NCBI GenBank assembly: GCA_903953565.1 | Contig: CAJBKE010000061.1 | Location: 7,604 to 71,603 of the forward strand | Reading direction: 5' to 3' | Length of the DNA: 64,000 nt | DNA from: an uncultured Verrucomicrobiota bacterium | GTDB taxonomy: Bacteria > Verrucomicrobiota > Verrucomicrobiia > Chthoniobacterales > JACTMZ01 | Part shown: positions 33,880 through 64,000 of the stretch, in pieces | Position numbering within the stretch: position 1 is the first letter of the stretch | How the letters are laid out: every line of letters begins with the position of its first letter | The notes under the pieces: generated by a model | The model's input: the letters and a program-made list of their open reading frames with translations, nothing else | Database searches by the model: none | Told to the model about the DNA's origin: nothing | Translations under genes and position numbers: made by a program

Positions 33880-33889
33880 GATTCGATCC

Positions 33890-37949: not shown

Positions 37950-37974
37950 ATAAGCAACTTCTCCAGCAACCCGT

Positions 37975-38256: not shown

Positions 38257-38296
38257 CTCTTCCCCCTCGGTGCCCTCTCTTTTATCTGCAGTCTCA

Positions 38297-38992: not shown

Positions 38993-39125
38993 ACCCTAAC
39001 CTCCTCGACTCTTGAGAGCGAGCGTCCGTCCGAGGCATAGCGCTCTACGAGCCGGAGGCCCCGCGCCATTGCCTCCCCCAAAGCCTTCTTGCCCCGATCC
39101 ACCCGCCCAACCGAATCTATCCCTC

Positions 39126-40704: not shown

Positions 40705-40777
40705 TCGGACTATGAGGCGCGTCGGGCCGTTCGCCTCCCGACCAACTCGAAGTGTTATAGCCAAGAGCAAAAGCAAA

Positions 40778-40844
40778 GGTGGATCGCGCCGTCCCGGCGC
40801 GGTTCTCCGTCGGGGAAGTCGCGATGGGGACATCGCGATCCGCC
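40778..40844. repeat. REP/BIME-like palindromic element, copy d
   Basis: GGTGGATCGCGCCGTCCCGGCGCG, a 16-nt spacer, then GTCGCGATGGGGACATCGCGATCCGCC, which is the inverted form of the variant seen at 457-484. It is followed by TTGTAGCGGCGCCGTC, a variant of the second motif family. It lies downstream of rlmH and upstream of gnd. Confidence 0.65.
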
Positions 40845-40922
40845 CTTGTAGCGGCGCCGTCACATTCAATCCGCTTGGCGCAACCACCTTCCCCTCGCTA
40901 AGCTTCGCGTCCTTTTCGTCAC

Positions 40923-42422
<1,500 letters not shown>

Positions 42423-42423
42423 C

Positions 42424-43212: not shown

Positions 43213-43230
43213 CGGCTGAGGCTGGCCAAC

Positions 43231-44001: not shown

Positions 44002-44108
44002 GGAACCGGATCCTAAACGCCTTCCGCTGTCCATGCCAAGCGGACTACCACCTGCCGCTTTTGCCCTGTGCTCGGGGCGAAGCCGATGCTATCGAGAAAC
44101 TTGCTTTG

Positions 44109-45704: not shown

Positions 45705-45712
45705 GAGGTGTT

Positions 45713-46762: not shown

Positions 46763-46934
46763 GAATTAAACACTAAAAGACCACACCGGCATGTTCGGAA
46801 CCACCTAGGGCTGGCAATCCGAACACGGGTGCTAATGCGTCGCTCTGCATGCCAGACGCAGCACGAGGATTGACCTCCGTCTCCCTTGAACCGTCCTTTG
46901 ATGACAGAGTTGTGCCTTCATGCTAGCCGGAGCG

Positions 46935-48956
46935 TTAGTAGAAGAAAATATAGAGTGCGATGGTGGCAACCACGACTCCGACAGCCCATATCTTTGCGAT
47001 CTTCGACGATTCGAGTGCAATGAGGTCCGTCGTCGGCATCACGACCGGTTTGGCCATTGGCTTGACCAGAGTGATGATCATCATCACGGCAAAAACCACC
47101 CCGAAGCAAATTGCCATGCGGTTGAGGAATGGGATGCTGCTCTGGAACATGTAAAGATAGCCGTAGAGCACGACATTGACGAGAATTCCAAGCCAGCCGA
47201 GGAAGCGGGGCGCGCGCGGCACCAGGAAACCAAACAGGAATACCATGAGCACGCCCGGACTGATGAAGCCCTGGAATTCCTGAATAAACGTGAAAATGCC
47301 GCCAAAGGCCGGATTCCCGAGGTTCGGAGCAATCAGGCAGGCGATCAAAACGAACAGGACCGTGAAGAACTTTCCAGCACCCACTAGGGTATCCTGACTA
47401 CTGCGCGGTTTGAGTTTCTGGAAAATATCGATCGTGGCAATCGTCGACGCGGAGTTGAGCATGGAGGCCAGTGATGACACCACCGCGCCGAAGATCGCGG
47501 CCAAGACGAACCACGTGATCCCGGGCTTCATCAAATTACGCAACAGCACCGGAAATGCGGCGTCATAGTCGTAATCAATCAACTTCGTGCCGACAGGGAC
47601 ATTTTTCGAAACCGCCATCGCCACGAGATCATTGTTGACTTGAGTGAGCGTTTCATCAGTTGCGCTGGCAAGGCCTTCCACTTTCTCGCCAAGGACACGT
47701 GCATTGTGTTCGATCACCCTGATCGCACTCTCAGGATCCACTTTGGCAAAGCTTCCTGAAAGAGGATGAACACTCAGCTGGCCGGAGACATCCACCGTTT
47801 CAATGGCGGAGAGAATCCGTTCGTTCTTCTTCGTAGCCTCCGCACGCAGATCATGGCTGTAGAGGTTAAAACACAGAATCCCGGGAATCACGATGACGAA
47901 GGGAATGACAAGCTTCAGGGCGGCTGCGAAAATAATTCCCTTCTGTCCCTCCGCAAGGGATTTGGATCCGAGGGTTCGCTGCACGATGTATTGGTTGAGG
48001 CCCCAGTAAAAGAAATTCGGGATCCATAGCCCGATGAGCAGGGCCGTCCAGGGAATCGCCGGATCGGACTTGGGACGAATCATGTGCAGCTTGCCACCGG
48101 AAAGGTTCTCGCCCGCGACAGCGACGGCCTCAGAATTTTTGCCGTCATTCAAAAGCATGAACCGCTCCCAGCCGCCGGCGTTTTCAAGATCCTCGACCGT
48201 GGCGCTCGAATTGGCGACCTTGGTTGCGATCAAATCCTGAGGGTTTGCGTCTCTCATGGCTCCTAACGCCAAAGTCAGGACAATCAAGCCGCCCAGAATG
48301 AGGGCAGCACCCCAGATCAGATCCGTCCACGCGCAGGCTTTTAGCCCACCGACGAACACATAAGCGGCAGCCGAGAGTCCGATGATCCAACAACCGACCG
48401 TGATGGAGCCCAGATCGAGTCCCAACACTTGGTGCCCAGCGAAAAACACAGAAACGACCTTGGCTCCGGAGTAAATCACCGAAGCGGTTGGCACGCCGAC
48501 CAGGATAACGAGCGTGGAAATTGCCATCACCGTTCGTGCGACCACCCCGTAGCGATACTCAAGGAATTCCGGGATCGTGTAGATGCCGCACCTCAGCAGT
48601 TTCGGCAGAAAAACAAAGGCGACCACCACGAGGGTAACGGCTGCCATCCACTCATACGAGGCAATGGCCATCCCAAGCCAGTCGGCGGCCTGACCCGACA
48701 TGCCGACAAACTGCTCCGTGGAAATGTTGGCAGCAATCAACGAGAAGCCGACCAGCCACCACGTCAGCCCGCGTCCAGCCAGGAAGTATCCGGCGGCACC
48801 TCCGGCCTCAGCGGCACCCTTTGTTTCTTTGTTGCCCTGCCAGATGCCGAAGGCGATGACGCCGACGACAGCCACGAAAAAGAGAACCATGTCGAGAGTG
48901 CTCATGGTGCTGGTTTCGACGGGCGCTTGAGCTAGAATGAAGGTGGAGAATGTCAT
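46935..48956 (-). CDS. sodium:solute symporter (SSS/SGLT family) sugar transporter
   Basis: 673 aa, about 14 TM helices. GYFLAGRGLTWW and FGAVVSSLASMLNSAS are typical SGLT motifs. A ~100 aa hydrophilic insert spans aa 367-466. An alternative start exists at 48905. Confidence 0.88.
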   Translation of the reverse strand: MTFSTFILAQAPVETSTMSTLDMVLFFVAVVGVIAFGIWQGNKETKGAAEAGGAAGYFLAGRGLTWWLVGFSLIAANISTEQFVGMSGQAADWLGMAIASYEWMAAVTLVVVAFVFLPKLLRCGIYTIPEFLEYRYGVVARTVMAISTLVILVGVPTASVIYSGAKVVSVFFAGHQVLGLDLGSITVGCWIIGLSAAAYVFVGGLKACAWTDLIWGAALILGGLIVLTLALGAMRDANPQDLIATKVANSSATVEDLENAGGWERFMLLNDGKNSEAVAVAGENLSGGKLHMIRPKSDPAIPWTALLIGLWIPNFFYWGLNQYIVQRTLGSKSLAEGQKGIIFAAALKLVIPFVIVIPGILCFNLYSHDLRAEATKKNERILSAIETVDVSGQLSVHPLSGSFAKVDPESAIRVIEHNARVLGEKVEGLASATDETLTQVNNDLVAMAVSKNVPVGTKLIDYDYDAAFPVLLRNLMKPGITWFVLAAIFGAVVSSLASMLNSASTIATIDIFQKLKPRSSQDTLVGAGKFFTVLFVLIACLIAPNLGNPAFGGIFTFIQEFQGFISPGVLMVFLFGFLVPRAPRFLGWLGILVNVVLYGYLYMFQSSIPFLNRMAICFGVVFAVMMIITLVKPMAKPVVMPTTDLIALESSKIAKIWAVGVVVATIALYIFFY

Positions 48957-49009
48957 ATAAGTGGGGTTGTGTATTGGCAGTTGAATTAAAAGGGTGGGGT
49001 TGATTGGAC

Positions 49010-50605
49010 TTATGGCTTCGATGAGGCCGGTTTCGGCGTTGCACCGTTGGAAACGATGCTGGCGAGTTCTGCCGCCAACTCTTTGGCTTTCTCTGGATGC
49101 TGCGCGATGACGTTGGACTTCTCGCCCGGATCGGTGGCTAAGTCGAAGAGCATGGGCTCAGGGATGAAGGCCGCGGCGAAGCGTTCATCGGAAGCGTTCG
49201 CTCCGGTCCCCATTCCGCCGCCTGCGTCCTTTGCGGTGGCAGGCAGGTATTTCCAGTTCCCCTTTCGGAGCGCCATGGTGCCAGCGACACCATGCTGGAC
49301 AGTGTGATCACGCACATTGTCCAAAGTTTTACCAAGCAATACAGCCGACAGATCGATGCTGTCCGGGGAGGTTCCCGTCGGGATTTCCTGATCGGTGATA
49401 GCAGCCACTGTGGCGATCACATCCACCAAGCTGATTAATTGGTTGGACACTCGTGGTTTGATTTCCGAAGGCCAACGCACGATAAACGGAACGCGGCATC
49501 CTCCTTCAAAGGTCTGATACTTCCACCCGCGCAATCCGCCGGTGGGGTTATGTCCATTCAGATCCTCAACGGAGCGATCGTAGTAGCCGTCGAAGAGAAT
49601 CGGTCCATTGTCGCTGGAGAAGATGACAATCGTATTCTCCGCCAGGCCGAGGCGGTCGAGCGTCCCAAGGATTTCGCCAACCTGCCAGTCAACTTGCGCG
49701 ATGACATCGCCACGCACCCCGGTGCCGCTCTTTCCGACAAACGGTGGCTCTGCCACGCGGGGAACATGCGGCTCAAAAAGCCCGACACTGAGAAAGAAGG
49801 GCTTGCCCGCGTTTCGCTCAATAAAATCCACCGATTCTCTCACAACGGTCGTGGCCAACTCCTCATCCTTGAAACGCGCCGCCTTCCCGCCCTTCATATA
49901 GCCAATGCGGCTAATGCCATTGATGATTGTGCAGGAATGCTGTTCGTCCGCGCCATAGTGGGTGAGAAGATCGGGGTGATCAATGCCGGTCGGCTCGTCG
50001 CTGATATTTTTGAGATAGCTGACCTCAATCGGATCAGCTGGATCGAGACCCACCACTTTGTGATTCTTAACCCAGACGCTCGGCACGCGATCCACGGTGG
50101 CAGGGATGATGTAAGAATCATCGAAACCGACTTCCAGTGGGCCAGGTTTGACTTCCTTGTTGAAATCCACCTTCGTTTCACCATCCCCAAGGCCGAGGTG
50201 CCACTTCCCTACCACGCCGGTCCGGTAGCCCGCCCTGCGCAACATCTCCGGCAGGGTGAACCGCCCCGGCTCAATGCAGAGCGGCGCGTCGCCATCGAGG
50301 ATGCTGTTACTTTTGGCCTTTTGACGCCAGGCGTATTCACCGGTCAACAACGAGTAGCGCGACGGCGTGCAAGTCGCTGATGGCGCGTAGCCCTGGGTGA
50401 AGCGCACACCATCCGCCGCGAGTCGGTCGATGTTCGGCGTCCGGACCTTTGTCGCGCCAGCACAGCTCATGTCGCCGGAACCAAGGTCATCTGCCATAAT
50501 GACGATAATGTTGGGTCTGGCGTGGTCGTTCGAAGCCGCGGCGGCGGAAAGAACAGGCAGCGGCGCGAGTAGCAGCGCGGTGAGGAGTTTATGGAGGTGT
50601 TTCAT
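49010..50605 (-). CDS. S1 sulfatase (Cys-type), secreted
   Basis: Start at ATG 50605 gives signal MKHLHKLLTALLLAPLPVLSAAAA. NIIVIMADDLG and the formylglycine motif CTPSRYSLLTG. Confidence 0.9.
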   Translation of the reverse strand: MKHLHKLLTALLLAPLPVLSAAAASNDHARPNIIVIMADDLGSGDMSCAGATKVRTPNIDRLAADGVRFTQGYAPSATCTPSRYSLLTGEYAWRQKAKSNSILDGDAPLCIEPGRFTLPEMLRRAGYRTGVVGKWHLGLGDGETKVDFNKEVKPGPLEVGFDDSYIIPATVDRVPSVWVKNHKVVGLDPADPIEVSYLKNISDEPTGIDHPDLLTHYGADEQHSCTIINGISRIGYMKGGKAARFKDEELATTVVRESVDFIERNAGKPFFLSVGLFEPHVPRVAEPPFVGKSGTGVRGDVIAQVDWQVGEILGTLDRLGLAENTIVIFSSDNGPILFDGYYDRSVEDLNGHNPTGGLRGWKYQTFEGGCRVPFIVRWPSEIKPRVSNQLISLVDVIATVAAITDQEIPTGTSPDSIDLSAVLLGKTLDNVRDHTVQHGVAGTMALRKGNWKYLPATAKDAGGGMGTGANASDERFAAAFIPEPMLFDLATDPGEKSNVIAQHPEKAKELAAELASIVSNGATPKPASSKP

Positions 50606-50645
50606 TTTGCTGAGTAGTTCTGTTGATAAAGCGCAGCCTTCCAAC

Positions 50646-52073
50646 TTACGGCGTATCGGGCCGAGGACGCCAGTCGCGCGAGACGACGAATTTCGGATCG
50701 GCGGCTTGGAGTTCGGCAAGAGTTTCAAAGCGACGTCCGTGGTCGTCGGTGTCCACGATCCATTTCTCAAGGACACCGCGGAGCCGCGCGAGCGCCTCCT
50801 TCACCTCGGGCTGGTCGGACTTGGCAAGGTTGTGCAACGCCCATGGATCGCTTTCCATGTCGTAGAGTTCCTCCTCAGGCATCGAGGGTTGAACGGCGAA
50901 TTCCTGCCCGGGAGTGAGTTTGCCCTCAGCGGCGAGCTTGGGCCAGAGCGTCCAAAGCGGATACTTTTGCGTCCTGTAGTTGTTGAACGCGAGGAACGGC
51001 ACCCAAGGAGTGAAGTTGCGGATGTAGCGCCAGCGCTGGTCGCGCACGCTGCGAATCCGCATCACAGTCATGTCGCAGCGGTCGCGATAGCCGAAGATGT
51101 AGTCGGGCTCCGGCTCGCAACGGTCGCCGAGGAAAATGCGGCCCTGCATCTCGGGCGGCTTGGCTCCCCCGGCGATGTCAATCATGGTCGGGGCGAGATC
51201 AATGCCGGCGATCAGGCGTGCGTCGCGCGTGCCGGGCTTGAAGTTGGCTGGCGCGGGAAAATTCTTCGGCCAGTAAATGATCAGCGGCACAAGAAAGCCC
51301 TCCTCGTAACAGAACTGCTTCCCGCGCGCATGCGCCTGGCCGTTGTCCCCGAAGAAAACGATGATGGTGTCATCGGCAAGACCGTCGGCCTTCAGCGCCT
51401 CAAGAATCGCGCCGACTTTCCGATCCAGTTCGGTCGCTGAATCCAGATAGTCGGCCCAATCCTTCCGCACGTCGGGGTGATCCGGATAGTAAGGCGGGAC
51501 TTCCACTTTGGCCGGGTCGGCTTTCTTTGGCCCGTGAAAAGGCCGGTGAGTCTCGCTGAAATTCACCTGCGCGTAAAACGGCTGATGGGATTTCAAATCC
51601 TCCCACTTGGAGGAGTCGAAGGGCTTGTCCGCTGAGAGAAAGTTCCAGTCCGTCTTGCCAGAGCCCTCGAAGCCGCACGAGGGCGGCATCTCGACCAGAT
51701 TCGCCGTGTAATAGCCCGCGTCACGCAACCATTCGGTGAGCGGACGCACGCCGTCCGGCAGCATCTTCTTGTCCTTGGTCCGATGGTTCTGCGCACCAAT
51801 GCTCGTGGCATGCATACCGGTCATGAACGACGAGCGGCTCACCGAGCACACCATGCCGTTGTAGAACCGCGTGTAGAGCACCCCCTCGCCCGCGAGGCGG
51901 TCGAGATTCGGCGTCCACACCTCCTTGGTGCCGAAGCAGCCCAAGTGCTGCCCGAAATCCTCGGCGATGAGCCAGAGGATGTTGGGACGCGACGGCTTTG
52001 TCCCGGCAGCGAGAAGATCAGACCCGCACATCGCGAGTAGCGACAAGGAGATGAGCGTGAAAATGCGTTTCAT
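50646..52073 (-). CDS. S1 sulfatase family protein with non-canonical active-site motif, secreted
   Basis: Signal MKRIFTLISLSLLAMCGS. NILWLIAEDFG. The motif reads CSVSRSSFMTG, with Val where Pro/Ala is expected. Confidence 0.8.
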   Translation of the reverse strand: MKRIFTLISLSLLAMCGSDLLAAGTKPSRPNILWLIAEDFGQHLGCFGTKEVWTPNLDRLAGEGVLYTRFYNGMVCSVSRSSFMTGMHATSIGAQNHRTKDKKMLPDGVRPLTEWLRDAGYYTANLVEMPPSCGFEGSGKTDWNFLSADKPFDSSKWEDLKSHQPFYAQVNFSETHRPFHGPKKADPAKVEVPPYYPDHPDVRKDWADYLDSATELDRKVGAILEALKADGLADDTIIVFFGDNGQAHARGKQFCYEEGFLVPLIIYWPKNFPAPANFKPGTRDARLIAGIDLAPTMIDIAGGAKPPEMQGRIFLGDRCEPEPDYIFGYRDRCDMTVMRIRSVRDQRWRYIRNFTPWVPFLAFNNYRTQKYPLWTLWPKLAAEGKLTPGQEFAVQPSMPEEELYDMESDPWALHNLAKSDQPEVKEALARLRGVLEKWIVDTDDHGRRFETLAELQAADPKFVVSRDWRPRPDTP

Positions 52074-52131
52074 TCCTGCTTCAGGTCATTGAAAGCTTCG
52101 GGTGGCTGCGGTTCGCCATGCAACCGGATCG

Positions 52132-53118
52132 TCAGTGTTTCGCATCGCCGTAGCCGTGGGGATGGGCCTGGTGCCATTGCCAAGCGCTGAGAATGATGTC
52201 TTTGAGATTGGGGAATTCGGGTTTCCAGCCGAGTTCGGCGCGGATCTTCTCGCTTGCCCCCACCAACACGGCGGGATCACCGGCGCGGCGCGGGGTGATC
52301 TTCACGGGAATCGGATGGCCGGTGATTTCACGGGCGGTCTCGATGACCTGCTTCACCGAGAACCCTTGGCCATTTCCAAGATTGTACGTGCGGCTGCCTT
52401 GCTCCAGCGCAGCGAGGGCAAGGATGTGGGCCTGTGCCAGGTCGCAGACATGGATATAATCCCGCACGCAGGTCCCATCGGGCGTGGGGTAGTCGTCGCC
52501 GAAGATGCTGATGTGCTCGCGCTGGCCGAGGGCAACCTGGAGCACCAGCGGAATGAGATGCAACTCGGGATTATGATCCTCTCCCCGTTCCTCGCTGGCG
52601 CCGGCGGCATTGAAATAACGCAGGCAGGCGGATTTCATCCCGTGCGTCTTCTCCAGCCAGTGCAGGGCGCGTTCCATGATGAACTTGCTCTCGCCATACG
52701 GACTGCCCGGGACGATGCGCTCGTCCTCCGCTATGGGCATGCGCTCGGGCTGGTCAAAGAGGTTGGCGGTGGAGGACAGGATGAATTTCTTCACCCCGTG
52801 GTCGCTCATGGCCTCCATGAGATTGAGACCATTGTTCGTGTTTTCCTGGAGATACTTGAAGGGTTTCTGCATGGACTCGCCCACGAGCGAGTAGGCGGCA
52901 AAGTGCATCACGGCCTCCGGCTTGTGTTCGGCGATGGCGGCGCTGATTTCCACTTTGACCGCCAAATCCCCCCGCACGAATACAGCCTTGGGATGCACGG
53001 CGGCGCGATGCCCCTGATAGAGATTGTCAAACACCACGACTTCATGTCCCTGCGCGATGAGGTTTTCCGTGGTGATGCTGCCGATGTATCCGGCTCCACC
53101 TGTAACGAGTACTTTCAT
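52132..53118 (-). CDS. galE: UDP-glucose 4-epimerase
   Basis: [14 protein letters not shown] and the YGESK catalytic motif. 328 aa. Confidence 0.95.
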
Positions 53119-53239
53119 GAGAATTCTGATCGCAGGACTGGTTTCTTGGTTTTTTGGTGGAACGCGCGGTGAACCGGACTCCGGTGGTTTATGGAGAGGC
53201 AGTCACCCCCGGTGCGCGTCCATGCATCGCATCTGGCGA

Positions 53240-54676
53240 TTATTCTTTGCCGGGTTCGGGTTTCGCATTTTCCTCGTTCAACATTTCAGGAACGGATTTC
53301 ACCTTCTTTTTCTGGCCGGGCTTTTTGGTGCCCTTCTCGGATTGTTCCGGCGCGTCGTAATGCGGTGAAGGCGTGTGTTGAGCCACCATGATGTCCTCGA
53401 TTTTCTTGACGATGTCAGCGTGGGCAGCGGCAAGGTCGTGCTTTTCCGCGGGATCCGATTTGAGGTCGTAGAGTTCGAGCGGCGCTTTCGTGCCCAGACG
53501 GTATCCTTTCCAGTCACCCAGGCGCACCGATTGTTGGAAGTAAGGCTCGTAGATCTCGAAATAGAGCGAGTCGTGCAGCTTTGTTTGTTGCTCACCGAGC
53601 AACGTCGGCAGAATGGAGATGCCGTCCGTGCCGGAAGGCGCAGGTGCACCGATCGCATCGGCTGCCGTCGGCAGAAAATCCGCGAAAGTAGTCAGCAATT
53701 CGCTGGTCGTGCCCGGCTCAATCTTGCCCGGCCACCGGGCGATGAAGGGAGCGCGGATGCCGCCTTCGTAAAGCATCCGCTTGTGACCACGCAACCCGCC
53801 GGTGCTGCCGAGCGGTTCGATGCATTCATCGTTGGCGCCGTTATCCGAACTGAAGATGACAAGTGTGTTGTCATCGATGCCGAGGTCTTTCAATTTTTCC
53901 ATCAGCCGGCCGACGTCCTTGTCAATCAGGCTGACCATCGCGGCGTAATTCTTGATCTCGACCGGCCAGGGCTGGTTTGAGAACGGGGTGTTGTCCGGGA
54001 TGACCCATTCATCGTGCGGAGGTGTCCACGCGGCATAGCAGAAGAACGGGCGGTCCTTGTTGTCCTCGATGAACTTGAGCGTCTCGTCGGCAATGCGGGT
54101 GTGGGAATAGTCTTCCCAAGTGTGCTTGCCAGACTGCTGATAGGGCACGTCCACGCTGTTGCGAACCAAGTAGTCGGTGTAATAGTCGTGCGCGTGCTTC
54201 TGGTCGTAGTAACCGAAGAACACATCAAAGCCTTGCTTCTCCGCCACACCGGTTGTGCCGGGATTTCCCAGCCCCCATTTGCCGAAACCACCGGTCGCGT
54301 AGCCGGCATCGTGCAGCAAGCGGGCCACGGTCGGTTGATCAGCCGGAAGGGAGAGCAGGCCGACCTTACTTTGGTTTGAGCGGCGCAAAACGTGCCCCGT
54401 ATGCTGGCCGGTCATCAGGACGCAGCGCGACGGCGCACAGACGGCACTGCCGCTGTAGGCTTGGGAAAATTTCATTCCTTCTGCGGCCAGACGATCAATG
54501 TTGGGCGTGAGACCATACTTGCAACCATAGGTCGAGAAATCGCCGATCCCCGCGTCATCGACGAGGATAAACACAATGTTGGGTTTCTTGTCCGGCTGCG
54601 GCGACGATTCAGCCGCCGGGGATGCGACAGGAAGCAATCCGAGTATCGCCGCGAAAATGGATGCGTATTTTTTCAT
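53240..54676 (-). CDS. S1 sulfatase (Cys-type), secreted
   Basis: Signal MKKYASIFAAILGLLPVASPAAE. NIVFILVDDAG, CAPSRCVLMTG, and a Lys-rich C-terminal tail. Confidence 0.9.
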   Translation of the reverse strand: MKKYASIFAAILGLLPVASPAAESSPQPDKKPNIVFILVDDAGIGDFSTYGCKYGLTPNIDRLAAEGMKFSQAYSGSAVCAPSRCVLMTGQHTGHVLRRSNQSKVGLLSLPADQPTVARLLHDAGYATGGFGKWGLGNPGTTGVAEKQGFDVFFGYYDQKHAHDYYTDYLVRNSVDVPYQQSGKHTWEDYSHTRIADETLKFIEDNKDRPFFCYAAWTPPHDEWVIPDNTPFSNQPWPVEIKNYAAMVSLIDKDVGRLMEKLKDLGIDDNTLVIFSSDNGANDECIEPLGSTGGLRGHKRMLYEGGIRAPFIARWPGKIEPGTTSELLTTFADFLPTAADAIGAPAPSGTDGISILPTLLGEQQTKLHDSLYFEIYEPYFQQSVRLGDWKGYRLGTKAPLELYDLKSDPAEKHDLAAAHADIVKKIEDIMVAQHTPSPHYDAPEQSEKGTKKPGQKKKVKSVPEMLNEENAKPEPGKE

Positions 54677-54708
54677 GAGGAGAATTCCGTGTTCGTGCGC
54701 GATGACTC

Positions 54709-56271
54709 CTAGTCCTCTTGGTTCTTCTTGGTGCCGTCCATTGTCTCACCCCGCATGACCCGATCGTAAAAATTCCGCTTCTCGGCGAAGCCGTAAGGAT
54801 ACTCGTCGTACACGTGTCCGTTGCCCAGCATCCGGGGATCTTCCTGTTGCTTGAGTTCAGCAAAGAGCTGCTCCTGCAATGCGGAAAACGACACCGTTGC
54901 GGCCAGATTTGTCATGCAATCAGGATCCTTGCTCAGATCAAACAACTGGTCGGCTGGAAGCTTCCCGAACGACGCATCGAAGAAATGCTTGAGAGCGGGA
55001 TTCTTCTCGGTTTCGAGCACCACGGCCTTCGTCGGACTGTCATCCGTATCCTTGTAGCCTGTCTCCACCACTCCTCCGGGCCCGCGATCGGTTTCGAAGT
55101 TGTGCAGATAAAGCATCCCGTCCTTGACGATGCCGCGGACCGGGTAGCCCTCGTCATTGGGCCGTCCGACATCGTTGCGCTCCTTGGCGAGAAGGACGTG
55201 ATCGCGCTCCGGAATGATGCGCCCGGCCTTTTCCGATTGGAAGATTTCCGCAAGACTCCGCCCCGACATCGGAGCCATGCCGCTCTTGCCCTCCGCCACG
55301 CCGGCGACCTCGAGGAACGTGGGGGCAAAATCGATAAAGCTCACATAATCATCGACCACCCGGCCCGGCTTGGCGATGCCCTCCGGCCACATGATGGCCA
55401 ACGGCAGGTGGTTGGAGTTGTTGTAAGCGTAGCCCTTGCAGTGCGGAAAAGGCATGCCGTTGTCGGAGGTTACGACCACGATCGTGTTCCGGAGTTCGCC
55501 CCGCTTCTCCAACTCGGCCAGCATCCGCCCCAAGTGGAGATCGAAATTTTCCACCTCGAACGCGTAATCAAGCATGTCGTTTCGCACCTCCTCGGTGTCC
55601 GGCCAGCAAGCCGGCACGCGATCAATGTCGGAGGTCTTTCTCCCCCCTTTGGCCACACCCGAGCCATACTCATAGCCGCGATGCGGTTCACGGCCGCCAT
55701 ACCAGAAGGACCACGGCTGGTCTTTGGGGGCGGCGTCCAAAAAGTCGTTGAAATTCCCGGCGTAATCGAGCGGCGAAATGCCTTTGGTAATCTTGGAGGC
55801 GAATTTCTTGGCCTGGAACGGTGTTCCGGCCATTTCGCGGTCCTGTCCGGCAGCATTCTTGGCGATGCCAGGCCCCCAACCCTTGCCGGTCATTCCGACA
55901 AAGTAGCCCTGCTCGGCCAGTGCTTCCTGGTAGGACTTGAACTCCGGTGGAAAGATCGACCAATGGTTTCCGGCGGCCTTGAGTTGCCATGGGTTGCGCC
56001 CCGTGACGATGGACGCCCTGGAGGGTGAGCATTTCGCGTTAGGCGTGTAAGCCTGATTGAAGAGGAGGCCGTCGCGGGCCACGCGATCCATCGCAGGGGT
56101 CGCGATCCATTTGCAGCCATAGGCCCCGGCGTGCCCGAACGACCAATCGTCCGCCACGGCGAAAAGGATGTTTGGCTTGTTTGGCAGCTTGGTGGACTCG
56201 GCGCCGCAGAGCACGGGGCGGGAAGCCAGAAGCAGCGCGGCTGAAAACAGGATCGTAGGAATGCCCCTCAT
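54709..56271 (-). CDS. S1 sulfatase (Cys-type), secreted
   Basis: Signal [35 protein letters not shown] and [11 protein letters not shown]. Confidence 0.9.
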
Positions 56272-56339
56272 GCAGGTTAGTTCTTCAGGTGGCGGCGGTC
56301 TTGGACAGCGTCAAGTGGAGGCCAAGTTTTGGACAAAAC

Positions 56340-56372
56340 GGGGGAATTCACAGTTCGTAGGGGGCAATTCAC
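56340..56372 (-). promoter_or_regulatory. direct-repeat candidate regulator site upstream of the sulfatase gene at 54709-56271
   Basis: GGGGGAATTCAC (56340-56351) and GGGGGCAATTCAC (56360-56372) start 20 bp apart, 69-101 nt upstream of the sulfatase ATG. Confidence 0.3.
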
Positions 56373-56545
56373 CGCTGGGCCGCGGCTGGGAAGAGTTTCC
56401 GGGCGCTTACTATGTAAACGCCACAGGCAGAAACACCCCGTTAAAGATCAGCCAAAAGAGCAAAATGTGATGTTTTTTCCTACGGTTTCAGCGCCCCGGG
56501 TGCGGCGGAAGCAGCAGCCGGCCGGAGGTGCTTTTGACGACAAAT

Positions 56546-57739
56546 TCAAAATTCACCGCGGCGGAAGGCTTCCATTGTCTCCCACGCGGTGCGCTGCAGG
56601 AGCTGACGCTCGGATTCGGTGAATGTCTGCTTGAGCGGATTGCCATCCGGATCGCAGCCAGGTTTGTCGGGATCGGCAACCTTGGTCTCGACAACCTCGG
56701 TCAGCGCCAGTCCCTCCGGGCTCTTGTTGAGGACCGCCGCATAGAAGAGGCATGCGGTCAGGTATGCGCAATACTGGTTCGGATGACCGTCGTTCTTGTA
56801 GCGAAGCGCGAGCGAAGTGCCGGCCTTTTGCAGACGGTAGATCGCGAGCGGCACGGGAACAACGAGGGCGCCCGTCTTCTTCGCGAGATCCGCGGCAAGC
56901 CGCACCTCCATAAGGGCGCGGCCTTTCTCGATCGGCCCGGTCACCGGCGCCATGTTCTGCGAATAGGGCGCGGTGATGTAGAGTATTGGCCGCGTGTTCT
57001 GCTGCTTGGCGATTTCGATGAATTTCGACGCGTATTTCAAATAGCCGCTCTCCGGATCGGGATTCATATCCTGCCAGCTTTGCAGCACGACGTAATCCCA
57101 CGACGGCGGAAAGTCGTTCCGCTGGGCCAACCACGCACGATGATTCCTCAGCGCACTTTTCAGGACCACACTCCGGTCGCCTTTCCATTGTGACGAACCG
57201 CGCTTGGCGATGTTCGCACGGGCTCGTTTCGGCGCGACATCGGCGGCTTCGTACTCTTCCCACGGCTGGAGTGCGGAGAAATCGATCTTCCTCCAATACT
57301 CGGTGTAAAACGGCGGTTCGTCGGCTTTGGCCAGCGCCTCCATTTCGCTCATCGAAGTTTTCATGTCCGCATCGGAAAGGGTCTGCAGACGGAGCAAGTC
57401 CTGACTGCGGAACAATTCGAAATGCCGGAACAGATCGCGCCCGCCGTAGGTGATGCGCTCGGTGATGAAGTTCGTTTCCGGATTGCCCTCGGTGGCGAGC
57501 GTTTTGAAGATGTCTTTCAGTTCATGCCGGGCGGTAAAGCTGTTCCCGATAAACAAGAAGCTTTGCGACTCGGAGGCTGGCGCCCGCGTCTCCGCCTTCG
57601 CACCGAATGCGCACAGGATAGCGGCCAATCCGAGAATGACCGGAGGGCAACTGTTCGATTTCCTGATCGGTAAGGCACTTTTTCGACCGCCCACCAGCAC
57701 CGGCAACGGCGCAACCAGAACCGCAGATGTTACCGGCAT
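56546..57739 (-). CDS. SGNH/GDSL-type hydrolase (carbohydrate esterase-like), secreted
   Basis: The ATG at 57739 lies 1 nt after the upstream stop (TGA-a-ATG). Block I FLFIGNSFT and block V NDGHPN. Hydrophobic signal region VILGLAAILCAFGAKA. Confidence 0.65.
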   Translation of the reverse strand: MPVTSAVLVAPLPVLVGGRKSALPIRKSNSCPPVILGLAAILCAFGAKAETRAPASESQSFLFIGNSFTARHELKDIFKTLATEGNPETNFITERITYGGRDLFRHFELFRSQDLLRLQTLSDADMKTSMSEMEALAKADEPPFYTEYWRKIDFSALQPWEEYEAADVAPKRARANIAKRGSSQWKGDRSVVLKSALRNHRAWLAQRNDFPPSWDYVVLQSWQDMNPDPESGYLKYASKFIEIAKQQNTRPILYITAPYSQNMAPVTGPIEKGRALMEVRLAADLAKKTGALVVPVPLAIYRLQKAGTSLALRYKNDGHPNQYCAYLTACLFYAAVLNKSPEGLALTEVVETKVADPDKPGCDPDGNPLKQTFTESERQLLQRTAWETMEAFRRGEF

Positions 57740-57740
57740 T

Positions 57741-59534
57741 TCATTTGGTGACTTCGATGAGGTGGAAGACGTCTTCTTCATCGTCCTCATTGACCAAGGA
57801 GAAATCGCTGTTCCGGGGGCCTTTATTGGCAAACGCCGCATCTGCGATGGTGATGCTCCTTTCGACCCATCTTCCGCTGTTGGTCTTGGTAATGTTTATC
57901 GCGGTTTTGTCCGGATCGTCCGAGGCATCATAACGAACGGAAAAATTTCCGCTTCCTTGATCCAAGTAAATGAGTTTTAGAGTGATTGGATCTTTGGCTC
58001 CTGCAGGAAGAAATTCATCATCGAGATCAAAATACATCCTGTTTCGCCCGCTTGAATTTTCAAAGGCCCGCGCATAACGGCCGTAAGGCTGATCTGCGGG
58101 TCCGACCCGCCACAATCCGACACTGGTTTGATTCGCATCAATCTGGGTAATGAACCGGCTGAAGTTTCTGGCGATCAGCCCGAAGCCGACATCGTTCATC
58201 GCCTTCGCCTCTAAGAGATAGCTGGCTCCCGTAAGGGAAGTGGCTGCATCCAGATCACCGACTTTCGCTCCGTATTTGCTGAATTCTGACTCGATTTTTT
58301 TCATCCGGTCCGCGTTGCTCTGCACGGCCTTCCCATATTGCTCCTCGGGGAAACGGAGGGTATCCGCGCTGTCGAGAACATCGCGCAGGGCGATGAAAGC
58401 CTGCGGGCTGGTCTGGGGCTGCTTGTAATAGGAATAGCGATTGGCGAAGGCGAAGCCCTCATCGTATTTGCCCGTTTGGACAGTGCGGTAATCCACTTCC
58501 CAGAGATCAAGCCCCCGATCCACCGTGGAAATAGCCGTCCAATAATAGTTCCAGATCGGATTTTCCCTGAAGCTTCCTCCCTCCCCGAATTTGGAAAACT
58601 CGCCGCGCACAAATTCCGGCTGCTTGCCGTTCAGTCCGTAAAAAGTGGGGCGCAGTTCGTTGTCCTGCTCGATCTCACCATTGGCCTGATAACCGACTGC
58701 GATCGTAAATTGCTGCTTGCGGAGTTCGATCGGGTAATTCTGGCGAAGCCAGTTGGCGAATAGTTGTTCGCCCGCTCTTGCTCCCCTGCCCTTCACCTCT
58801 CCCCGCTCGCTCTGATCGGCGACGTTGAAAAGGAATTTGATGTGCTCGAGTTCCGGCTTATCGAAGGCATCGTAGAACCGTTTCGTCGCTCCGCGGCAGA
58901 ACTCGAGATACTCCTCCGCGCTGATGTTGTATCTCGGGTCTTTCGGCGAGCCCTTGTAGAGCTGGCGGTCGCCTGTCGAGCCGAAGGCCGGCTGAATGAA
59001 AGCAAAAGCTTTCCGATCCGCTTCGGGAAGCGAGGCAATGTGATCCGCCAGTTTGCCGATAAAACGATGGAAGTATTTGATGTAGTTGGGATCGAGGTAA
59101 TAGGGAAAATAATCTTTGCCCTTGCCTCCACTCACCGCCACTTTCGGCACTCCTTGCTCATAAATCCATTCCGGCGCGTGCGGGCCGGTCCATAGGACGA
59201 AATAGTAGTAATAGTTCCCCTCGACCGCATTACGGATGTGCGAATCGAGCGACGACCAGTCATAGACACCTGGCTTGGGCTCAAGATCCGCCCACTTGAT
59301 TCGATCGGCCTGTCCTTTGACGAAAGGAAACCTCGCGGTATCGATCATTTCATCTTTGGAATTGGCGAAGAACCCCGCCCACGGCGGGCGTGCAGAAAGG
59401 GTTTTTTCAGTAGGAGCGTTGTCTGACCCTGGGGGATTTGATTTTTCCACCTCGATCTGAGCTTCTGCACGGAGCGCAGCTGGCGATGCCAGCAACAGCG
59501 CGACGAGGGCGATCAATTTTTGCGGCGTTTTCAT
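57741..59534 (-). CDS. putative glycoside hydrolase (clan GH-A TIM-barrel, GH42-like N-terminus), secreted
   Basis: Signal MKTPQKLIALVALLLASPAALRA. IKWADLEPKPGVYDWSSLD is the motif typical of GH42/GH35-type beta-galactosidase-like barrels. There is a C-terminal beta-sandwich-like region. The family was not verified. Confidence 0.45.
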   Translation of the reverse strand: MKTPQKLIALVALLLASPAALRAEAQIEVEKSNPPGSDNAPTEKTLSARPPWAGFFANSKDEMIDTARFPFVKGQADRIKWADLEPKPGVYDWSSLDSHIRNAVEGNYYYYFVLWTGPHAPEWIYEQGVPKVAVSGGKGKDYFPYYLDPNYIKYFHRFIGKLADHIASLPEADRKAFAFIQPAFGSTGDRQLYKGSPKDPRYNISAEEYLEFCRGATKRFYDAFDKPELEHIKFLFNVADQSERGEVKGRGARAGEQLFANWLRQNYPIELRKQQFTIAVGYQANGEIEQDNELRPTFYGLNGKQPEFVRGEFSKFGEGGSFRENPIWNYYWTAISTVDRGLDLWEVDYRTVQTGKYDEGFAFANRYSYYKQPQTSPQAFIALRDVLDSADTLRFPEEQYGKAVQSNADRMKKIESEFSKYGAKVGDLDAATSLTGASYLLEAKAMNDVGFGLIARNFSRFITQIDANQTSVGLWRVGPADQPYGRYARAFENSSGRNRMYFDLDDEFLPAGAKDPITLKLIYLDQGSGNFSVRYDASDDPDKTAINITKTNSGRWVERSITIADAAFANKGPRNSDFSLVNEDDEEDVFHLIEVTK

Positions 59535-59668: not shown

Positions 59669-62600
59669 TCACGGAATGCTGATCTCAATTTTGTAGAATT
59701 TGTTCGTCCCGAAATCTCCGTTATCAATGACAGTGCGAATGATGTTGGGCTCGGTGCCAGCATCACTTGACGCGCCTCCGCTCAGGGGGATCCATGCTCC
59801 AGAGGTGAGGAAATCAGCAGTTTTCAATGTGTAGGTGCGGCCACTGAAGATAGGGCTGAAGCTAATGGCAAATTGGTTCGGTTGGCCCGGCGTGGCAGAC
59901 ACCGTGGTTTTAAACACGGAAGCGGCATTCGTAGGCACCAAACCGGCAACGAATTCGAAAGTGTTCACGTTGCCGTCGCCATCGTCGTCTCCGTTCGGCC
60001 CTTGCAAGAGGTTGTGTTGGGCGGACCATGCGGTGTAAGGCGTGACGACTGTGATGCCCAATAAGACGGTAGTCGATCCGCCGGTGTTCGTCGCCGTAAT
60101 GGTGTAGCAGGCGGGCGCAGTCTCCGCCGTTGGCGTCCCGCTGATGATGCCCGAGGATGTGTCGAGCGTCAGGCCGGCCGGCAACGCAGGCGATACCGCA
60201 TACGAAACCACCCCTCCCCCGCTGCTGTTCGGCGTGTTGTTCGTGATCACCGCGCCCTTGGTGTAAGTGGCCGGGTTGCTGGAGTAACTAAGAGACGAGG
60301 GCGCAGCGTCATTGACCGTGATGCTCAACGAGGCGGTGGTCGACCCGCCGCTGTTCGTCGCTGTCACGGTGTAATCGGCTGTGGAGGTCACCGCCGAGGG
60401 AGTTCCGCTAATAACACCCGTCGCAGTGTCCAGCGTCAGCCCGGCCGGCAACGCGGGCGAAACCGCATATGAAACCACCGGTCCACCGCTGCTCGTCGGC
60501 GTGTTGCTCGTGATCTCCGTGCCCTTCGTGTAAGTAGCCGAGGTGCTGGCGTAGCCCAGCGAAGACGGCGCGGCATCGTTCACCGTGATACTCACCGACG
60601 CGGTGGTCGATCCGCCGCTGTTCATCGCCGTAACGGTGTAGGCAGTGGTCGAGGTTACGGTGGCAGGCGATCCGCTGATGACGCCGGTGGAGGTGTCGAG
60701 CGTCAGCCCCGCTGGTAGCGTGGGTGAAACCGCATACGAGACCACCGCGCCGCCGCTGCTCGTCGGGGTGTTGGCGGTGATCGCCGTGCCCTTGGTGTAG
60801 GTAGCCGGGTTGCTGGAGTAACTGAGAGAGGAGGGCGCAGCGTCATTGACCGTGATGCTCACCGAGGCGGTGGTCGACCCGCCGCTGTTCGTCGCTGTCA
60901 CGGTGTAATCGGCTGTGGAGGTCACCGCCGAGGGAGTTCCGCTAATGACACCCGTCGCAGTGTCCAGCGCCAGCCCGGCCGGCAACGCGGGCGATACCGC
61001 ATAAGAAACCACCACGCCACCACTGCTGTTCGGCGTGTTGTTCGTGATCACCGCGCCTTTGATGTAGGTGGCCGGGTTGCTGGAGTAACTGAGAGAGGAG
61101 GGCTCAGCATCATTGACCGTGATGCTCACCGAGGCGGTGGTCGAGCCGCCGCTATTACTCGCCGTGACGGTGCAATCGGCGGGCGCGGTCACTGCCGTCG
61201 GCGTGCCGCTGATGATGCCCGTCGAGGTATTAAGCGTCAGCCCGGCCGGCAACGCGGGCGAAACCGCATACGAAACCACCACGCCACCAATGCTCGTCGG
61301 CGTGCTGTTAGTGATCGCCTCACCCTTGGTGTAAGTCGCGGGATTGTTGGCGTAGCTCAGCGAAGAGGGTGCGGCATCGTTCACCGTGATGCTCAGAGGG
61401 AAGCTCGTTGATCCGCCGGAGTTCGTTGCCGTTACGGTGTAACTGGCTGTGGCAGTCACTGCCGTCGGTGTGCCGCTGATGACGCCCGTCGAAGTGTTAA
61501 GCGTGAGCCCGGCCGGAAGGGCAGGCAAAACCGCATACGAAACCACCCCGCCCCCACTGCTCGTCGGCGTGTTGTTCGTGATCGCCGCGCCCTTGGTGTA
61601 TGTGGCCGGGCTGCTCGCATAGGACAACGAGGAAGGGGCGACGACGGCTGGCGGACTGACCTCAAAGGAGATACTCCATCCACCGCTAATCGTTCCGGCG
61701 TCCTGCTGGTCATCATCTCGCACATAAAGGCTCCAGACTCCAGTGGGATTGGTGCCAATGAAGGTGGATAAGGTCGTAGCATACGGCGAAGCGGGAGCAG
61801 GCGAAGGAAAGGTGTCGGAGTTGGTGTCGTTGTTTGTGGGCTTGTAGGTGCCGCTGATGATCGAGTTGTTTGGAAGTGAAGCCGAGGCCGTGTCGTTGAA
61901 TGAAATACTCGCATTCACAACATCAGCTGTTCCCCCAGCGTCAGACATCAGGAGCAACTTCTGCCCGGAAGGCCCGACCAGCAGAATATCCACATCCGAT
62001 GGGTAGGTGTGATTAAAGCCATTGAGTGAGACCGTTGCCTTGATGACCGTTCCGCTTGTTGACGGAACCGTGATCGTGGAGGGATAAGGCGTAGCAGCTG
62101 CCCGGTCATTGATCGTGATCGCCGAGGAGTTGCTATAGGTCAGGAAATCATTGACCGTGATCGCCAGCAAAGCAGTCGCAGATCCGCCACTGTTCGATGC
62201 CGTGACAGTGCAACTGGTAGTCGGAGTCGCCGCCGTGGGCGTGCCGCTGATGACACCGTTGGTAGTGTTCAGAGTTAACCCGGCGGGCAGGGCCGGCGAA
62301 ACTCCATAGGAGACCACCGCTCCACCGCTGTTGGTCGGCGTGTTATTGGTGATCGCGGCGCCTTTCCTGTAAGTGGCCGGGTTGCTGGAATAGGTCAGCA
62401 CCGAGGGCGCGACATCTTTGACCGTGATGTTCAACGAAGCAGTCGTGGACCCCGCACTGTTGGTTGCGGTAACGATGTAGTTGGAGGCAGAAGTCACCGC
62501 TGTGGGCGTCCCGCTGATGATCCCTGAGCTCGTGCTTAGCGCGAGGCCCGCTGGCAGTGCGGGCGATACAGAATAAGAAGCCACGGCTCCGCCAGTGCTG

Positions 62601-64000
62601 CTCGGGCTGTTGTTCGTGATTGCCGTTCCCTTCGTGTAGATGACCGGATTGGTTGCATAGGTCAGATTTGCGGGCGGTGAGGTCGCGCTAGCATTATTAA
62701 CCGTGATCGTTAGCAGGGCTGTCGTAGATCCGCCGCTGTTCGTCGCCGTGACGGTGTAAACCGTTGTCGGGCTGGCCGCGGTGGGAGTGCCCCGGGTTTC
62801 GCCCTGTGCGTTTAGGGTTAGGCCGGCGGGTAGCGCGGGCGTGATGGAATACAAAACCACGGCACCACCACTGCTGGTGGGCGAGTTTCTCGTGGCGTTC
62901 ACGAGCGCCGTGCCCACAGTAAAAACGGCGGGGTTGTTGGAGTATCCCAGCGATGAGGGCGGTATATCGTTGACCGTGATACTCACGGAGGCGGTCGTGG
63001 AGCCATTGGTGTTCGCGGCCGTGATCGTGTAAGTGGCGGTCGCAGTCACCGCCGTGGGCGTCCCGCCGATCACACCCGTGGCAGGATCCAGCGTCAGGCC
63101 CGCGGGGAGCGCGGGTGTGACTGAATAGGATGCCACGGCTCCCCCGCCGCTGGTCGGCGCATTATTGGTGATCGCCGTGCCCTTCGTGTAGGTAGCCGGG
63201 TTGCTGGAGTAGGATAGCAACGTGGGCGCAAGACCGGTAACGGTGATGCTGACCTGAGCCGTAGTGGATCCGCCGGAATTCGTCGCTGTCACGGTGTGAA
63301 AAGTCGTCGCACTGGCAGCCAAGGGCGTGCCGCTGATCACACCCGTGGAGGTGTTGAGCGTGAGACCGACTGGCAGTGCGGGCGATACCGCGTAGGAAAC
63401 CACGATTCCTCCAGTATTCGCCGGCGTATTAAAGGGGATCACCACGCCTGCGGTGTAAGCGGCGGGGTTGCTGGAATAAGTCAGCGCCGAAGGCGCGATA
63501 TCATTCACCGTGATAGTTAGATTAGCAGTCGTAGAGCCATCGGCATTCGTTGCCGTGATGGTGTAGGTCGCGGTCGCGGTCACTTCCGTCGGCGTGCCGC
63601 TGATGACTCCCGTGGTGCTGTTCAGGTAAAGACCTTTGGGCAGCCGCGGCGAAGCCACATACCTGATCGCGCTGCCTCCAATACTGGCAGGTAAGAGATT
63701 TGCGATTGCCGTGCCCTTCGTGTAGGCGGAAGGGATGGAGTAAGTCAGCGCCGTAGGCGGATTCGGGCCAGGCGAGCTGACGTCAATCAAGAGGGTCGCC
63801 GTGTCGGAACCACCGGTGCTGCTGACCTGCACGGTCCAACGGTTCAGACCGGCGTCGGCGGACGTCGGTGTTCCCGAGAGGGCTCCGCTGGAGGAAACTG
63901 TGAGCCAGTCAGTTCCTCCGGAAATCTTGGAAAGCTTGGTAAACGTCAGCGGCTGGCTGTTCGGATCGGTGGCGTCACCCGCCATTGTCTGGCCTGTGTA
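59669..64000 (-). CDS. giant surface protein: at least 13 He_PIG/cadherin-like Ig repeats, an internal proprotein-convertase P-domain and a DxDGDG C-terminal module (5' end outside the window)
   Basis: The frame stays open past the listed M at 63985 to the window edge. 88-93 aa repeats follow the pattern YSSNPATYTKG.AITNNTPTSSGGAVVSYAVSPALPAGLTL.T.TGVISGTPTAVT....YTVTATNSGGSTTASVSITVND. The P-domain occupies aa 614-782 (DVDILLVGPSG...GVWSLYVRDDDQQDAGTISGGWSISFEV). Confidence 0.85.
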   Translation of the reverse strand, partial: YTGQTMAGDATDPNSQPLTFTKLSKISGGTDWLTVSSSGALSGTPTSADAGLNRWTVQVSSTGGSDTATLLIDVSSPGPNPPTALTYSIPSAYTKGTAIANLLPASIGGSAIRYVASPRLPKGLYLNSTTGVISGTPTEVTATATYTITATNADGSTTANLTITVNDIAPSALTYSSNPAAYTAGVVIPFNTPANTGGIVVSYAVSPALPVGLTLNTSTGVISGTPLAASATTFHTVTATNSGGSTTAQVSITVTGLAPTLLSYSSNPATYTKGTAITNNAPTSGGGAVASYSVTPALPAGLTLDPATGVIGGTPTAVTATATYTITAANTNGSTTASVSITVNDIPPSSLGYSNNPAVFTVGTALVNATRNSPTSSGGAVVLYSITPALPAGLTLNAQGETRGTPTAASPTTVYTVTATNSGGSTTALLTITVNNASATSPPANLTYATNPVIYTKGTAITNNSPSSTGGAVASYSVSPALPAGLALSTSSGIISGTPTAVTSASNYIVTATNSAGSTTASLNITVKDVAPSVLTYSSNPATYRKGAAITNNTPTNSGGAVVSYGVSPALPAGLTLNTTNGVISGTPTAATPTTSCTVTASNSGGSATALLAITVNDFLTYSNSSAITINDRAAATPYPSTITVPSTSGTVIKATVSLNGFNHTYPSDVDILLVGPSGQKLLLMSDAGGTADVVNASISFNDTASASLPNNSIISGTYKPTNNDTNSDTFPSPAPASPYATTLSTFIGTNPTGVWSLYVRDDDQQDAGTISGGWSISFEVSPPAVVAPSSLSYASSPATYTKGAAITNNTPTSSGGGVVSYAVLPALPAGLTLNTSTGVISGTPTAVTATASYTVTATNSGGSTSFPLSITVNDAAPSSLSYANNPATYTKGEAITNSTPTSIGGVVVSYAVSPALPAGLTLNTSTGIISGTPTAVTAPADCTVTASNSGGSTTASVSITVNDAEPSSLSYSSNPATYIKGAVITNNTPNSSGGVVVSYAVSPALPAGLALDTATGVISGTPSAVTSTADYTVTATNSGGSTTASVSITVNDAAPSSLSYSSNPATYTKGTAITANTPTSSGGAVVSYAVSPTLPAGLTLDTSTGVISGSPATVTSTTAYTVTAMNSGGSTTASVSITVNDAAPSSLGYASTSATYTKGTEITSNTPTSSGGPVVSYAVSPALPAGLTLDTATGVISGTPSAVTSTADYTVTATNSGGSTTASLSITVNDAAPSSLSYSSNPATYTKGAVITNNTPNSSGGGVVSYAVSPALPAGLTLDTSSGIISGTPTAETAPACYTITATNTGGSTTVLLGITVVTPYTAWSAQHNLLQGPNGDDDGDGNVNTFEFVAGLVPTNAASVFKTTVSATPGQPNQFAISFSPIFSGRTYTLKTADFLTSGAWIPLSGGASSDAGTEPNIIRTVIDNGDFGTNKFYKIEISIP
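60044..61639 (-). repeat. in-frame tandem coding repeats R7-R12 (264-267 bp units), partly near-identical at the DNA level
   Basis: Six consecutive 88-89 aa units downstream of the P-domain. 60301-60460 and 60835-60994 (offset 534 bp, or 2 units) differ at only a handful of positions. Confidence 0.85.
62147..63772 (-). repeat. in-frame tandem coding repeats R1-R6 (267-279 bp units)
   Basis: Six consecutive 89-93 aa He_PIG-like units upstream of the P-domain, with moderate divergence between units. Confidence 0.8.

Follow-up and report, generated by a model that had tools for sequence, protein, structure and literature searches.

The P-domain was originally recognised in proteins where it follows an S8 catalytic domain; the kexin/furin convertases and bacterial kexin-like proteases such as the Aeromonas sobria serine protease (ASP; PDB 3HJR) belong here. 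Free-standing bacterial P-domain modules, annotated as 'proprotein convertase P-domain-containing protein' or 'P/Homo B domain-containing', are in most sampled cases protease-free and joined to immunoglobulin (Ig)-like or adhesin-type repeats. The concept of 'fibrillar enzymes' has been put forward for surface proteins with an enzymatic head (Monzon et al. 2022, PMC9210967). Here we describe a giant protein of a freshwater Verrucomicrobium in which a single P-domain lies between two arrays of Ig-like He_PIG repeats. The gene runs off the right-hand end of the 64,000-nucleotide (nt) stretch of DNA that was analysed (the window), and the P-domain is encoded at 61640-62146. We regard it as probable, though well short of certain, that the protein is a Sec-exported fibrillar enzyme, probably displayed at the cell surface, whose P-domain serves as a non-catalytic accessory.

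The protein shares with the kexin/furin convertases and ASP the P-domain fold (Foldseek E ~1e-4, prob 1.0) and two hallmark motifs. It differs from the convertases in that neither protein nor locus encodes an S8 peptidase, and in that Ig-like repeats lie on either side of the P-domain, which carries an insertion and has marginal sequence similarity to P-domains of known structure. The free-standing modules match the same subfamily profile, but here the domain is in single copy between He_PIG arrays and accompanies a head resembling glycoside hydrolases (GH). Like fibrillar enzymes and adhesins, the protein has a signal peptide, a terminal head, an Ig-like stalk whose repeat number varies, and a separate terminal part as a possible anchor. 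Unlike them, it has no recognised LPXTG, PEP-CTERM or type IX secretion system (T9SS) C-terminal anchor, and its surface location is one that we infer; the published example of a fibrillar enzyme has a stalk of Flg_new domains rather than He_PIG (PMC9210967). The head shares with GH42 and GH35 beta-galactosidases a barrel followed by a beta-sandwich, a profile match over strands 2-3 and a conserved Glu ending a late barrel strand.

A P-domain between two arrays of Ig-like repeats

The open reading frame (ORF) is encoded by the minus strand, with the N-terminal side of the protein at the higher window positions. Counted from the first ATG, the ORF covers 59669..63985, but it stays open up to base 64000; its stop codon is at 59669-59671. 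The plus strand over the same region has short ORFs only, as expected for 61% G+C DNA. A search with the window translation recovered the full-length protein, P0001, of 2,255 amino acids (aa), which is 100% identical to that translation and is encoded on a 199,691-bp ENA metagenome contig (L001). Residue 1 of the window translation corresponds to residue 813 of P0001; the C-terminal two thirds of the protein are encoded within the window, and the 5' 2,436 nt of the gene lie beyond its edge.

From the N- to the C-terminus, P0001 is composed of a signal peptide, a 545-aa head, an InlB B-repeat, a domain of ~140 aa, seven He_PIG domains, the P-domain, six He_PIG domains and a C-terminal domain. 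Pfam finds He_PIG (PF05345) in 13 tandem stretches of the window translation (394 bits, above threshold). Repeat boundaries were anchored on the conserved motif G-x-I-S-G-T-P, which gives 12 complete repeats with successive spacings of 89, 89, 91, 93 and 89 aa, then 257 aa, then five times 89 aa. The long spacing marks an insertion of ~168-169 aa, exactly that of the P-domain segment, which splits the repeats 6+6. The repeat cut by the window edge is a more divergent first He_PIG domain. The sequence-only reading of this region had described an ORF open at the edge, one partial and 12 complete repeats, and their 6+6 division by a 169-aa segment; each of these elements is borne out, the minus strand being the one point left unstated.

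The 169-aa segment is a genuine P-domain by both hidden Markov model (HMM) and fold, as the sequence-only reading had proposed. A Pfam scan of the whole ORF gives a P_proprotein (PF01483) match of 33.0 bits over window-translation residues 662-778, where the gathering score is 21; for the segment by itself the score rises to 39.6 bits (E 5.5e-10). The segment has an insertion of ~40 aa with respect to the Pfam model, 117 residues being spread over 76 model positions. The AlphaFold2 (AF2) model, built from an alignment of 56 homologues, is all-beta, has a mean predicted local distance difference test (pLDDT) score of 96.6 across the 169 residues, and describes a jelly-roll beta-sandwich. When this model is compared with PDB structures using Foldseek, ranks 1-27 are taken by furin, ASP and Kex2 (E 1.4e-4 to 3e-3, prob 1.0, query-normalised TM-score 0.42-0.53), and the moderate TM-score is consistent with the insertion. 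Against PDB sequences, the best match of the P-domain profile is again ASP; it is marginal (E 0.22) and aligned only over the two hallmark motifs, H..D.D-LLV-P-G and G-W-L-V-D. The assignment is therefore based on the fold and on the Pfam HMM. Foldseek also reports a weak resemblance to an accessory domain of GH50 exo-agarases (E 0.04-0.1), which was set aside as too weak to point to glycan binding.

There is no match to Peptidase_S8 (PF00082) in P0001, even at E<=1 (the level at which aa 1-890 were scanned); in these 890 residues Pfam returns only weak GH42, Flg_new_2, He_PIG and Big_9 matches. Precomputed Pfam annotation of P0001 lists no such match either. The part of the protein encoded in the window matches no peptidase family, in agreement with the sequence-only reading, and the 812 residues recovered upstream contain no S8. 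Of the two findings that the sequence-only reading had named as fatal to it, an upstream S8 domain and a failing PF01483 search, neither occurred. Genes for S8 peptidases are also absent from 26.8 kb of L001 and from window positions 44-64 kb.

P-domains of this type are common. The 110 nearest proteins in a word-indexed search are small, are 37-61% identical to the P-domain and have no S8; they carry PF01483 alone or with PEP-CTERM, CarboxypepD_reg, HemolysinCabind or FG-GAP. An exhaustive search of 1.84 billion cluster representatives with the P-domain profile yields 23,619 proteins at E<=1e-3, of which 6,537 also pass E<=1e-30; the 150 best-scoring are large proteins with 3-8 P-domain copies each. 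Among 13 proteins sampled and scanned with Pfam, all but one (P0370) are without Peptidase_S8; the partner domains in the sampled proteins include Calx-beta, HYR, FG-GAP, DUF11, Big_9, CarboxypepD_reg and Por_Secre_tail. A planctomycete protein of 2,210 aa with multiple P-domains and without peptidase has been described (bioRxiv 10.1101/388082), and a P_proprotein-like N-terminal cluster occurs among predicted fibrillar adhesins (PMC9210967). On sequence grounds, the subfamily can be regarded as an abundant, stand-alone or multi-copy module of bacterial surface proteins that is mostly protease-free, and these searches document the P-domain as a widely reused, protease-independent module. The view that a protease-less P-domain is unusual does not hold; that P-domains normally follow a subtilisin/kexin domain is true of the eukaryotic convertases but not of bacteria at large. 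Since its best PDB sequence match is marginal, this large subfamily appears to be without a solved structure.

The two ends of the protein

The first 812 residues of P0001 comprise the signal peptide, the head of ~545 aa at aa 22-567, a Flg_new_2/InlB B-repeat and the ~140-aa domain. The N-terminus, MKRILLIITSLPLATFSSLHA|ELG, is a Sec-type signal peptide, recognised by inspection rather than with a predictor. In the AF2 model of the head (pLDDT 95.2), a barrel of alternating strands and helices is followed from residue ~400 by an all-beta part, a predicted fold that is a (beta/alpha)8 triosephosphate isomerase (TIM) barrel with a C-terminal beta-sandwich. Foldseek against the PDB ranks GH35 beta-galactosidases first (Cellvibrio CjBgl35A, Xanthomonas, Caulobacter), then GH42 and GH30, with E ~1e-9, and the head profile matches the GH42 structures 5xb7 (E 2.3e-6) and 3tts (E 7.6e-4). 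Most head homologues are stand-alone secreted proteins of ~580 aa, and in the remainder the head is joined to Flg_new_2, to Ig-like stalks or to T9SS tails. Homologues at the greatest distance (32-34% identity) pass the Pfam GH42 threshold, and some sources name them beta-galactosidase. By modelled fold and remote homology the head is GH-A-like, with a predicted activity. The sequence-only reading had allowed for a catalytic domain in the missing N-terminus; a domain of catalytic type is indeed present there, but it is GH35/GH42-like and not a peptidase.

In clan GH-A the catalytic glutamates are an acid/base residue after strand 4, within an N-E motif, and a nucleophile after strand 7. Glu275 of P0001 is present in 51 of the 52 head sequences, at a strand end in the motif NEMDQTW, and is a plausible nucleophile. 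Conserved acids also follow the strand at P0001 151-155 (query residues 130-134), namely D163 (52/52) and E164 (38/52) in TGATGDEEPY.

The ~140-aa domain (P0001 aa 649-790; about 11945-12370 on L001), which follows the InlB B-repeat and precedes the first He_PIG domain, has no match in Pfam, NCBIfam or PDB sequences; a hit to a Fab chain (E 0.014) was rejected as meaningless. It is present in the orthologues P0023-P0059 and P0075, and cleanly absent from P0066, P0104, P0107, P0116 and P0119.

The protein ends with a conserved domain of 126 aa, closing with ...KFYKIEISIP, which is a putative anchoring or sorting module. It carries the acidic, TSP3-like motif DDDGDGNxN at 59939-59992. An HMM built from the orthologues finds this domain in all of them and at the C-terminus of P-domain-less relatives, among them the distant L007, L016 and L026 and, more weakly, L017 and L011. 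No second copy was found in the window or in L001 by tblastn. Known sorting signals, including the T9SS C-terminal domain and PEP-CTERM, were considered for it and rejected. In one relative (L014), Pfam matches TSP3_bac at aa 1140-1160 of 1282, in the C-terminal part. The domain also closes the ORF 2-535 of L023, which is truncated by the contig start.

Relatives, stalk evolution and genomic neighbourhood

There are 16 metagenomic proteins of 999-1,963 aa with the order head, Flg_new_2, optional ~140-aa domain, n He_PIG, P-domain, m He_PIG and C-terminal domain; one of them, the 999-aa fragment, is truncated N-terminally and has no head. Both n and m vary, being for instance 3+1 in P0119 but 7+6 in P0001. 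A scan of GTDB species representatives with a 15-sequence alignment revealed 33 loci, the closest of which (85-94% head identity) are in freshwater Verrucomicrobiota metagenome-assembled genomes (MAGs) labelled Akkermansiaceae, Luteolibacter, 'Ca. Methylacidiphilales' and subdivision 6. Orthologues that bear the P-domain and keep this domain order are found in L002-L005, L008, L033 and the isolate Verrucomicrobia bacterium IMCC26134 (L029), whose complete genome (CP011265.1) contains, at about 1,388,956-1,394,856, a 1,967-aa ORF with eight He_PIG, Flg_new_2 and P_proprotein. More distant relatives with head and stalk, from Pontiella, Kiritimatiellales, Planctomycetota and myxococcal MAGs, are P-domain-free, and their stalks consist of He_PIG, Big_9, cadherin-like or PKD domains. 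The P-domain is therefore a lineage-specific accessory outside the core design, and its combination, as a single copy amid He_PIG arrays, with a GH-like head is seen only in a verrucomicrobial lineage.

The two halves of the stalk differ in age. The mutual identity of repeats R1-R6 is about 51% in aa and 59% in nt; that of R7-R12 is 79% in both (range 73-91% in nt, with R9 and R11 91% identical). The orthologues carry just 1-3 repeats after the P-domain, against six in P0001. Judged by these identities, R7-R12 is the younger array and R1-R6 the older one, the former resulting from a recent and polymorphic expansion. The 90% cluster of P0001 includes three further 2,255-aa members, each from another assembly, and variants of 1,825 and 1,899 aa; He_PIG copy number thus appears polymorphic among cluster members.

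Head and stalk do not diverge together. The head of P0023 is only 59% identical to that of P0001, while its stalk and P-domain reach 88-97% (P-domain 88%, R6 97%), whereas P0066 is 93% identical in the head and 53% in the P-domain. These uncoupled identities point to module exchange between genes, and suggest that recombination swaps stalk cassettes between genes with different heads.

The features of the locus are listed in table 1. Together with the head of the giant protein itself, there are four tandem head paralogues (profile E 1e-99 to 1e-160), a layout that recurs in the MAG loci L003, L004, L006 and L007. The DUF4886-like ORF sits between the sulfatases and the stand-alone paralogue, and the glycan-utilisation genes at 44532..57841 are all co-oriented with the giant gene. 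Farther upstream on L001 are an (alpha/alpha)6 GH-like gene, a Melibiase-like gene, a sigma/helix-turn-helix-type regulator and a PATR protein.

Table 1. Features of the giant gene and its neighbourhood (window coordinates unless L001 is indicated).
Feature	Position	Strand	Basis
3' 4,332 nt of the 6,768-nt giant gene (aa 813-2255 + stop)	59669..64000	-	ORF list, translation, mapping onto P0001
Proprotein-convertase-type P-domain, 169 aa (P0001 aa 1431-1599)	61640..62146	-	Pfam, AF2, Foldseek
First He_PIG domain, divergent, cut by window edge (P0001 aa ~800-886)	63779..64000	-	Pfam He_PIG/Big_9
He_PIG R1-R6, 89-93 aa each	62147..63769	-	Pfam, anchor spacing, identity matrices
He_PIG R7-R12, 89 aa each	60044..61645	-	Pfam, anchor spacing, identity matrices
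C-terminal domain, 126 aa; putative anchoring/sorting module	59672..60049	-	Orthologue-built HMM
Stand-alone paralogue of head, 597 aa, immediately downstream	57741..59534	-	Head-profile hmmsearch E 1.4e-99; weak GH35 NCBIfam match
Two head paralogues, immediately upstream	L001 5838-7862, 7802-9850	+ on L001	36-38% identity over ~570 aa
DUF4886-like gene, 431-aa ORF	56546-57841	-	Sub-threshold DUF4886, 21.3 vs 26.7 bits (Pfam)
Four sulfatases	54709-56271, 53240-54676, 50646-52073, 49010-50776	-	Pfam
NAD-dependent sugar epimerase/dehydratase-family gene	52132-53118	-	Pfam
Na+/solute symporter	46935-48956	-	Pfam
Aldose 1-epimerase	45713-46762	-	Pfam
Galactokinase	44532-45974	-	Pfam

This context speaks for a cluster that handles a sulfated polysaccharide containing galactose, the substrate being deduced from gene content; with sulfatases, galactose-utilisation genes and head paralogues adjoining the giant gene, the physical attachment to a glycan-degradation locus claimed from the sequence alone is well founded. 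Published work documents freshwater Verrucomicrobia as degraders of polysaccharides with many GH and sulfatase genes (PMC5615132). The window region 27513-44034 is occupied by housekeeping genes, including those for valyl-tRNA synthetase, ALAD, 6-phosphogluconate dehydrogenase, argininosuccinate lyase, ribose-5-P isomerase, a CLC channel, lipoate ligase and TerC. This places the glycan cluster on the chromosome, with its start near 44.5 kb. No tRNA genes were found in the window; promoter and terminator scans at both ends of the giant gene found none, such scans being uninformative for a verrucomicrobium.

Proposed function and alternatives

We propose that the C-terminal domain would hold the giant protein at the cell envelope, while the Ig-like stalk, changing in length by gain and loss of repeats, would project the glycosidase-like head away from the cell. 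The head may attack a galactose-rich, sulfated polysaccharide, the products of which could be processed by the sulfatases, the stand-alone paralogues, the symporter, galactokinase, aldose 1-epimerase and the sugar epimerase-family enzyme. The P-domain cannot play its classical role, because there is no protease and because seven Ig domains separate it from the head. It would act instead as a ligand-binding jelly roll or as a rigid joint in the stalk; we infer that one of these two roles is the most likely, docking of a partner being possible. The binding or spacer module suggested by the sequence-only reading is accordingly a reasonable candidate.

Several observations weigh against this proposal. 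The C-terminal domain matches no sorting or anchor family in Pfam or NCBIfam, and surface retention is consequently a guess. The head scores only 16.4 bits against Pfam GH42 (PF02449), below the cut-off of 21 and over aa 55-102 only; it has no NCBIfam match, its fold TM-scores are only ~0.4, and it is about 10% identical to the GH42 and GH35 structures. The canonical N-E (Asn-Glu) acid/base motif is not evident after strand 4, for which reason catalysis by the head is a prediction. The partners of the P-domain elsewhere are generic surface modules and not carbohydrate-active enzyme modules, so nothing points specifically to glycan binding. Finally, many relatives with head and stalk have no P-domain, which is dispensable for the core function.

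The strongest competitor, which we nevertheless consider unlikely, is a pure fibrillar adhesin, in which a non-catalytic, lectin-like TIM-barrel head and the P-domain as a second binding site would attach cells to algae or to particles of polysaccharide. Such a protein would fit the sub-threshold GH42 score and the non-canonical acid/base region. It would also fit the stalk-plus-head layout, which is that of fibrillar adhesins (PMC9210967), and the co-occurrence of the P-domain subfamily with the adhesin-type domains HYR, Calx-beta, FG-GAP and DUF11. However, the acids E275, D277 and D163 are near-invariant and located at the ends of barrel strands, and heads occur mostly as ~580-aa stand-alone secreted proteins, here as four paralogues in tandem surrounded by genes for sulfatases and galactose catabolism, a pattern typical of enzymes. 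The sequence-only reading had suggested an adhesin-like protein; the stalk agrees with this, but the GH-like head found upstream does not agree with a plain adhesin.

The P-domain of convertases works via a protein-protein interface, which would suit a docking platform that recruits partners, for example the paralogous enzymes or the sulfatases, onto the stalk in a cellulosome-like manner. A docking role is given to the multiple P-domains of the protease-less 2,210-aa planctomycete protein in the 'planctosome' model (bioRxiv 10.1101/388082), and small stand-alone P-domain proteins with PEP-CTERM anchors exist. That model is itself hypothetical, the neighbouring genes encode no dockerin/cohesin-like or other partner module, and there is a single P-domain per protein here; we therefore judge docking to be rather improbable as an explanation of this protein.

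An artefact of assembly, with the repeat count or the mid-array insertion arising from mis-assembled near-identical repeats, could be suspected because L001 is a k141 metagenome contig (141-nt k-mer) and R7-R12 are so similar, but it is very improbable: the longest exact repeat within the gene is 84 nt, shorter than the k-mer, the same 2,255-aa length is found in three other assemblies, and the P-domain lies between He_PIG arrays in every P-domain orthologue, including that of the complete isolate genome.

Within the fibrillar-enzyme proposal, a bolder extension is that the head and its three tandem paralogues form a new GH-A family acting on freshwater algal or cyanobacterial sulfated galactans, and that the P-domain subfamily is a new family of carbohydrate-binding modules; we hold this to be speculative and doubtful. 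The present findings do not overturn current understanding, but they flag an uncharacterised GH42/GH35-like family, tandemly expanded beside sulfatases in abundant freshwater Verrucomicrobiota, and the cultured IMCC26134 offers a route to experiments on the degradation of sulfated polysaccharides by these bacteria.

The least tenable reading is an ordinary subtilase/kexin architecture with an S8 domain in the unseen N-terminus stabilised by the P-domain: it would accord with the domain's first definition, with the S8-bearing P0370 and with the name 'subtilisin-like proprotein convertase family protein' that the Joint Genome Institute (JGI) gives to several family members, but it is refuted by the full-length sequence, in which the N-terminal domain folds as a GH35/GH42-like barrel and not as a subtilase, is separated from the P-domain by seven Ig domains and has no S8 gene nearby. 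The members bearing this JGI name have no protease domain, and the name is a likely mis-annotation that the present analysis corrects.

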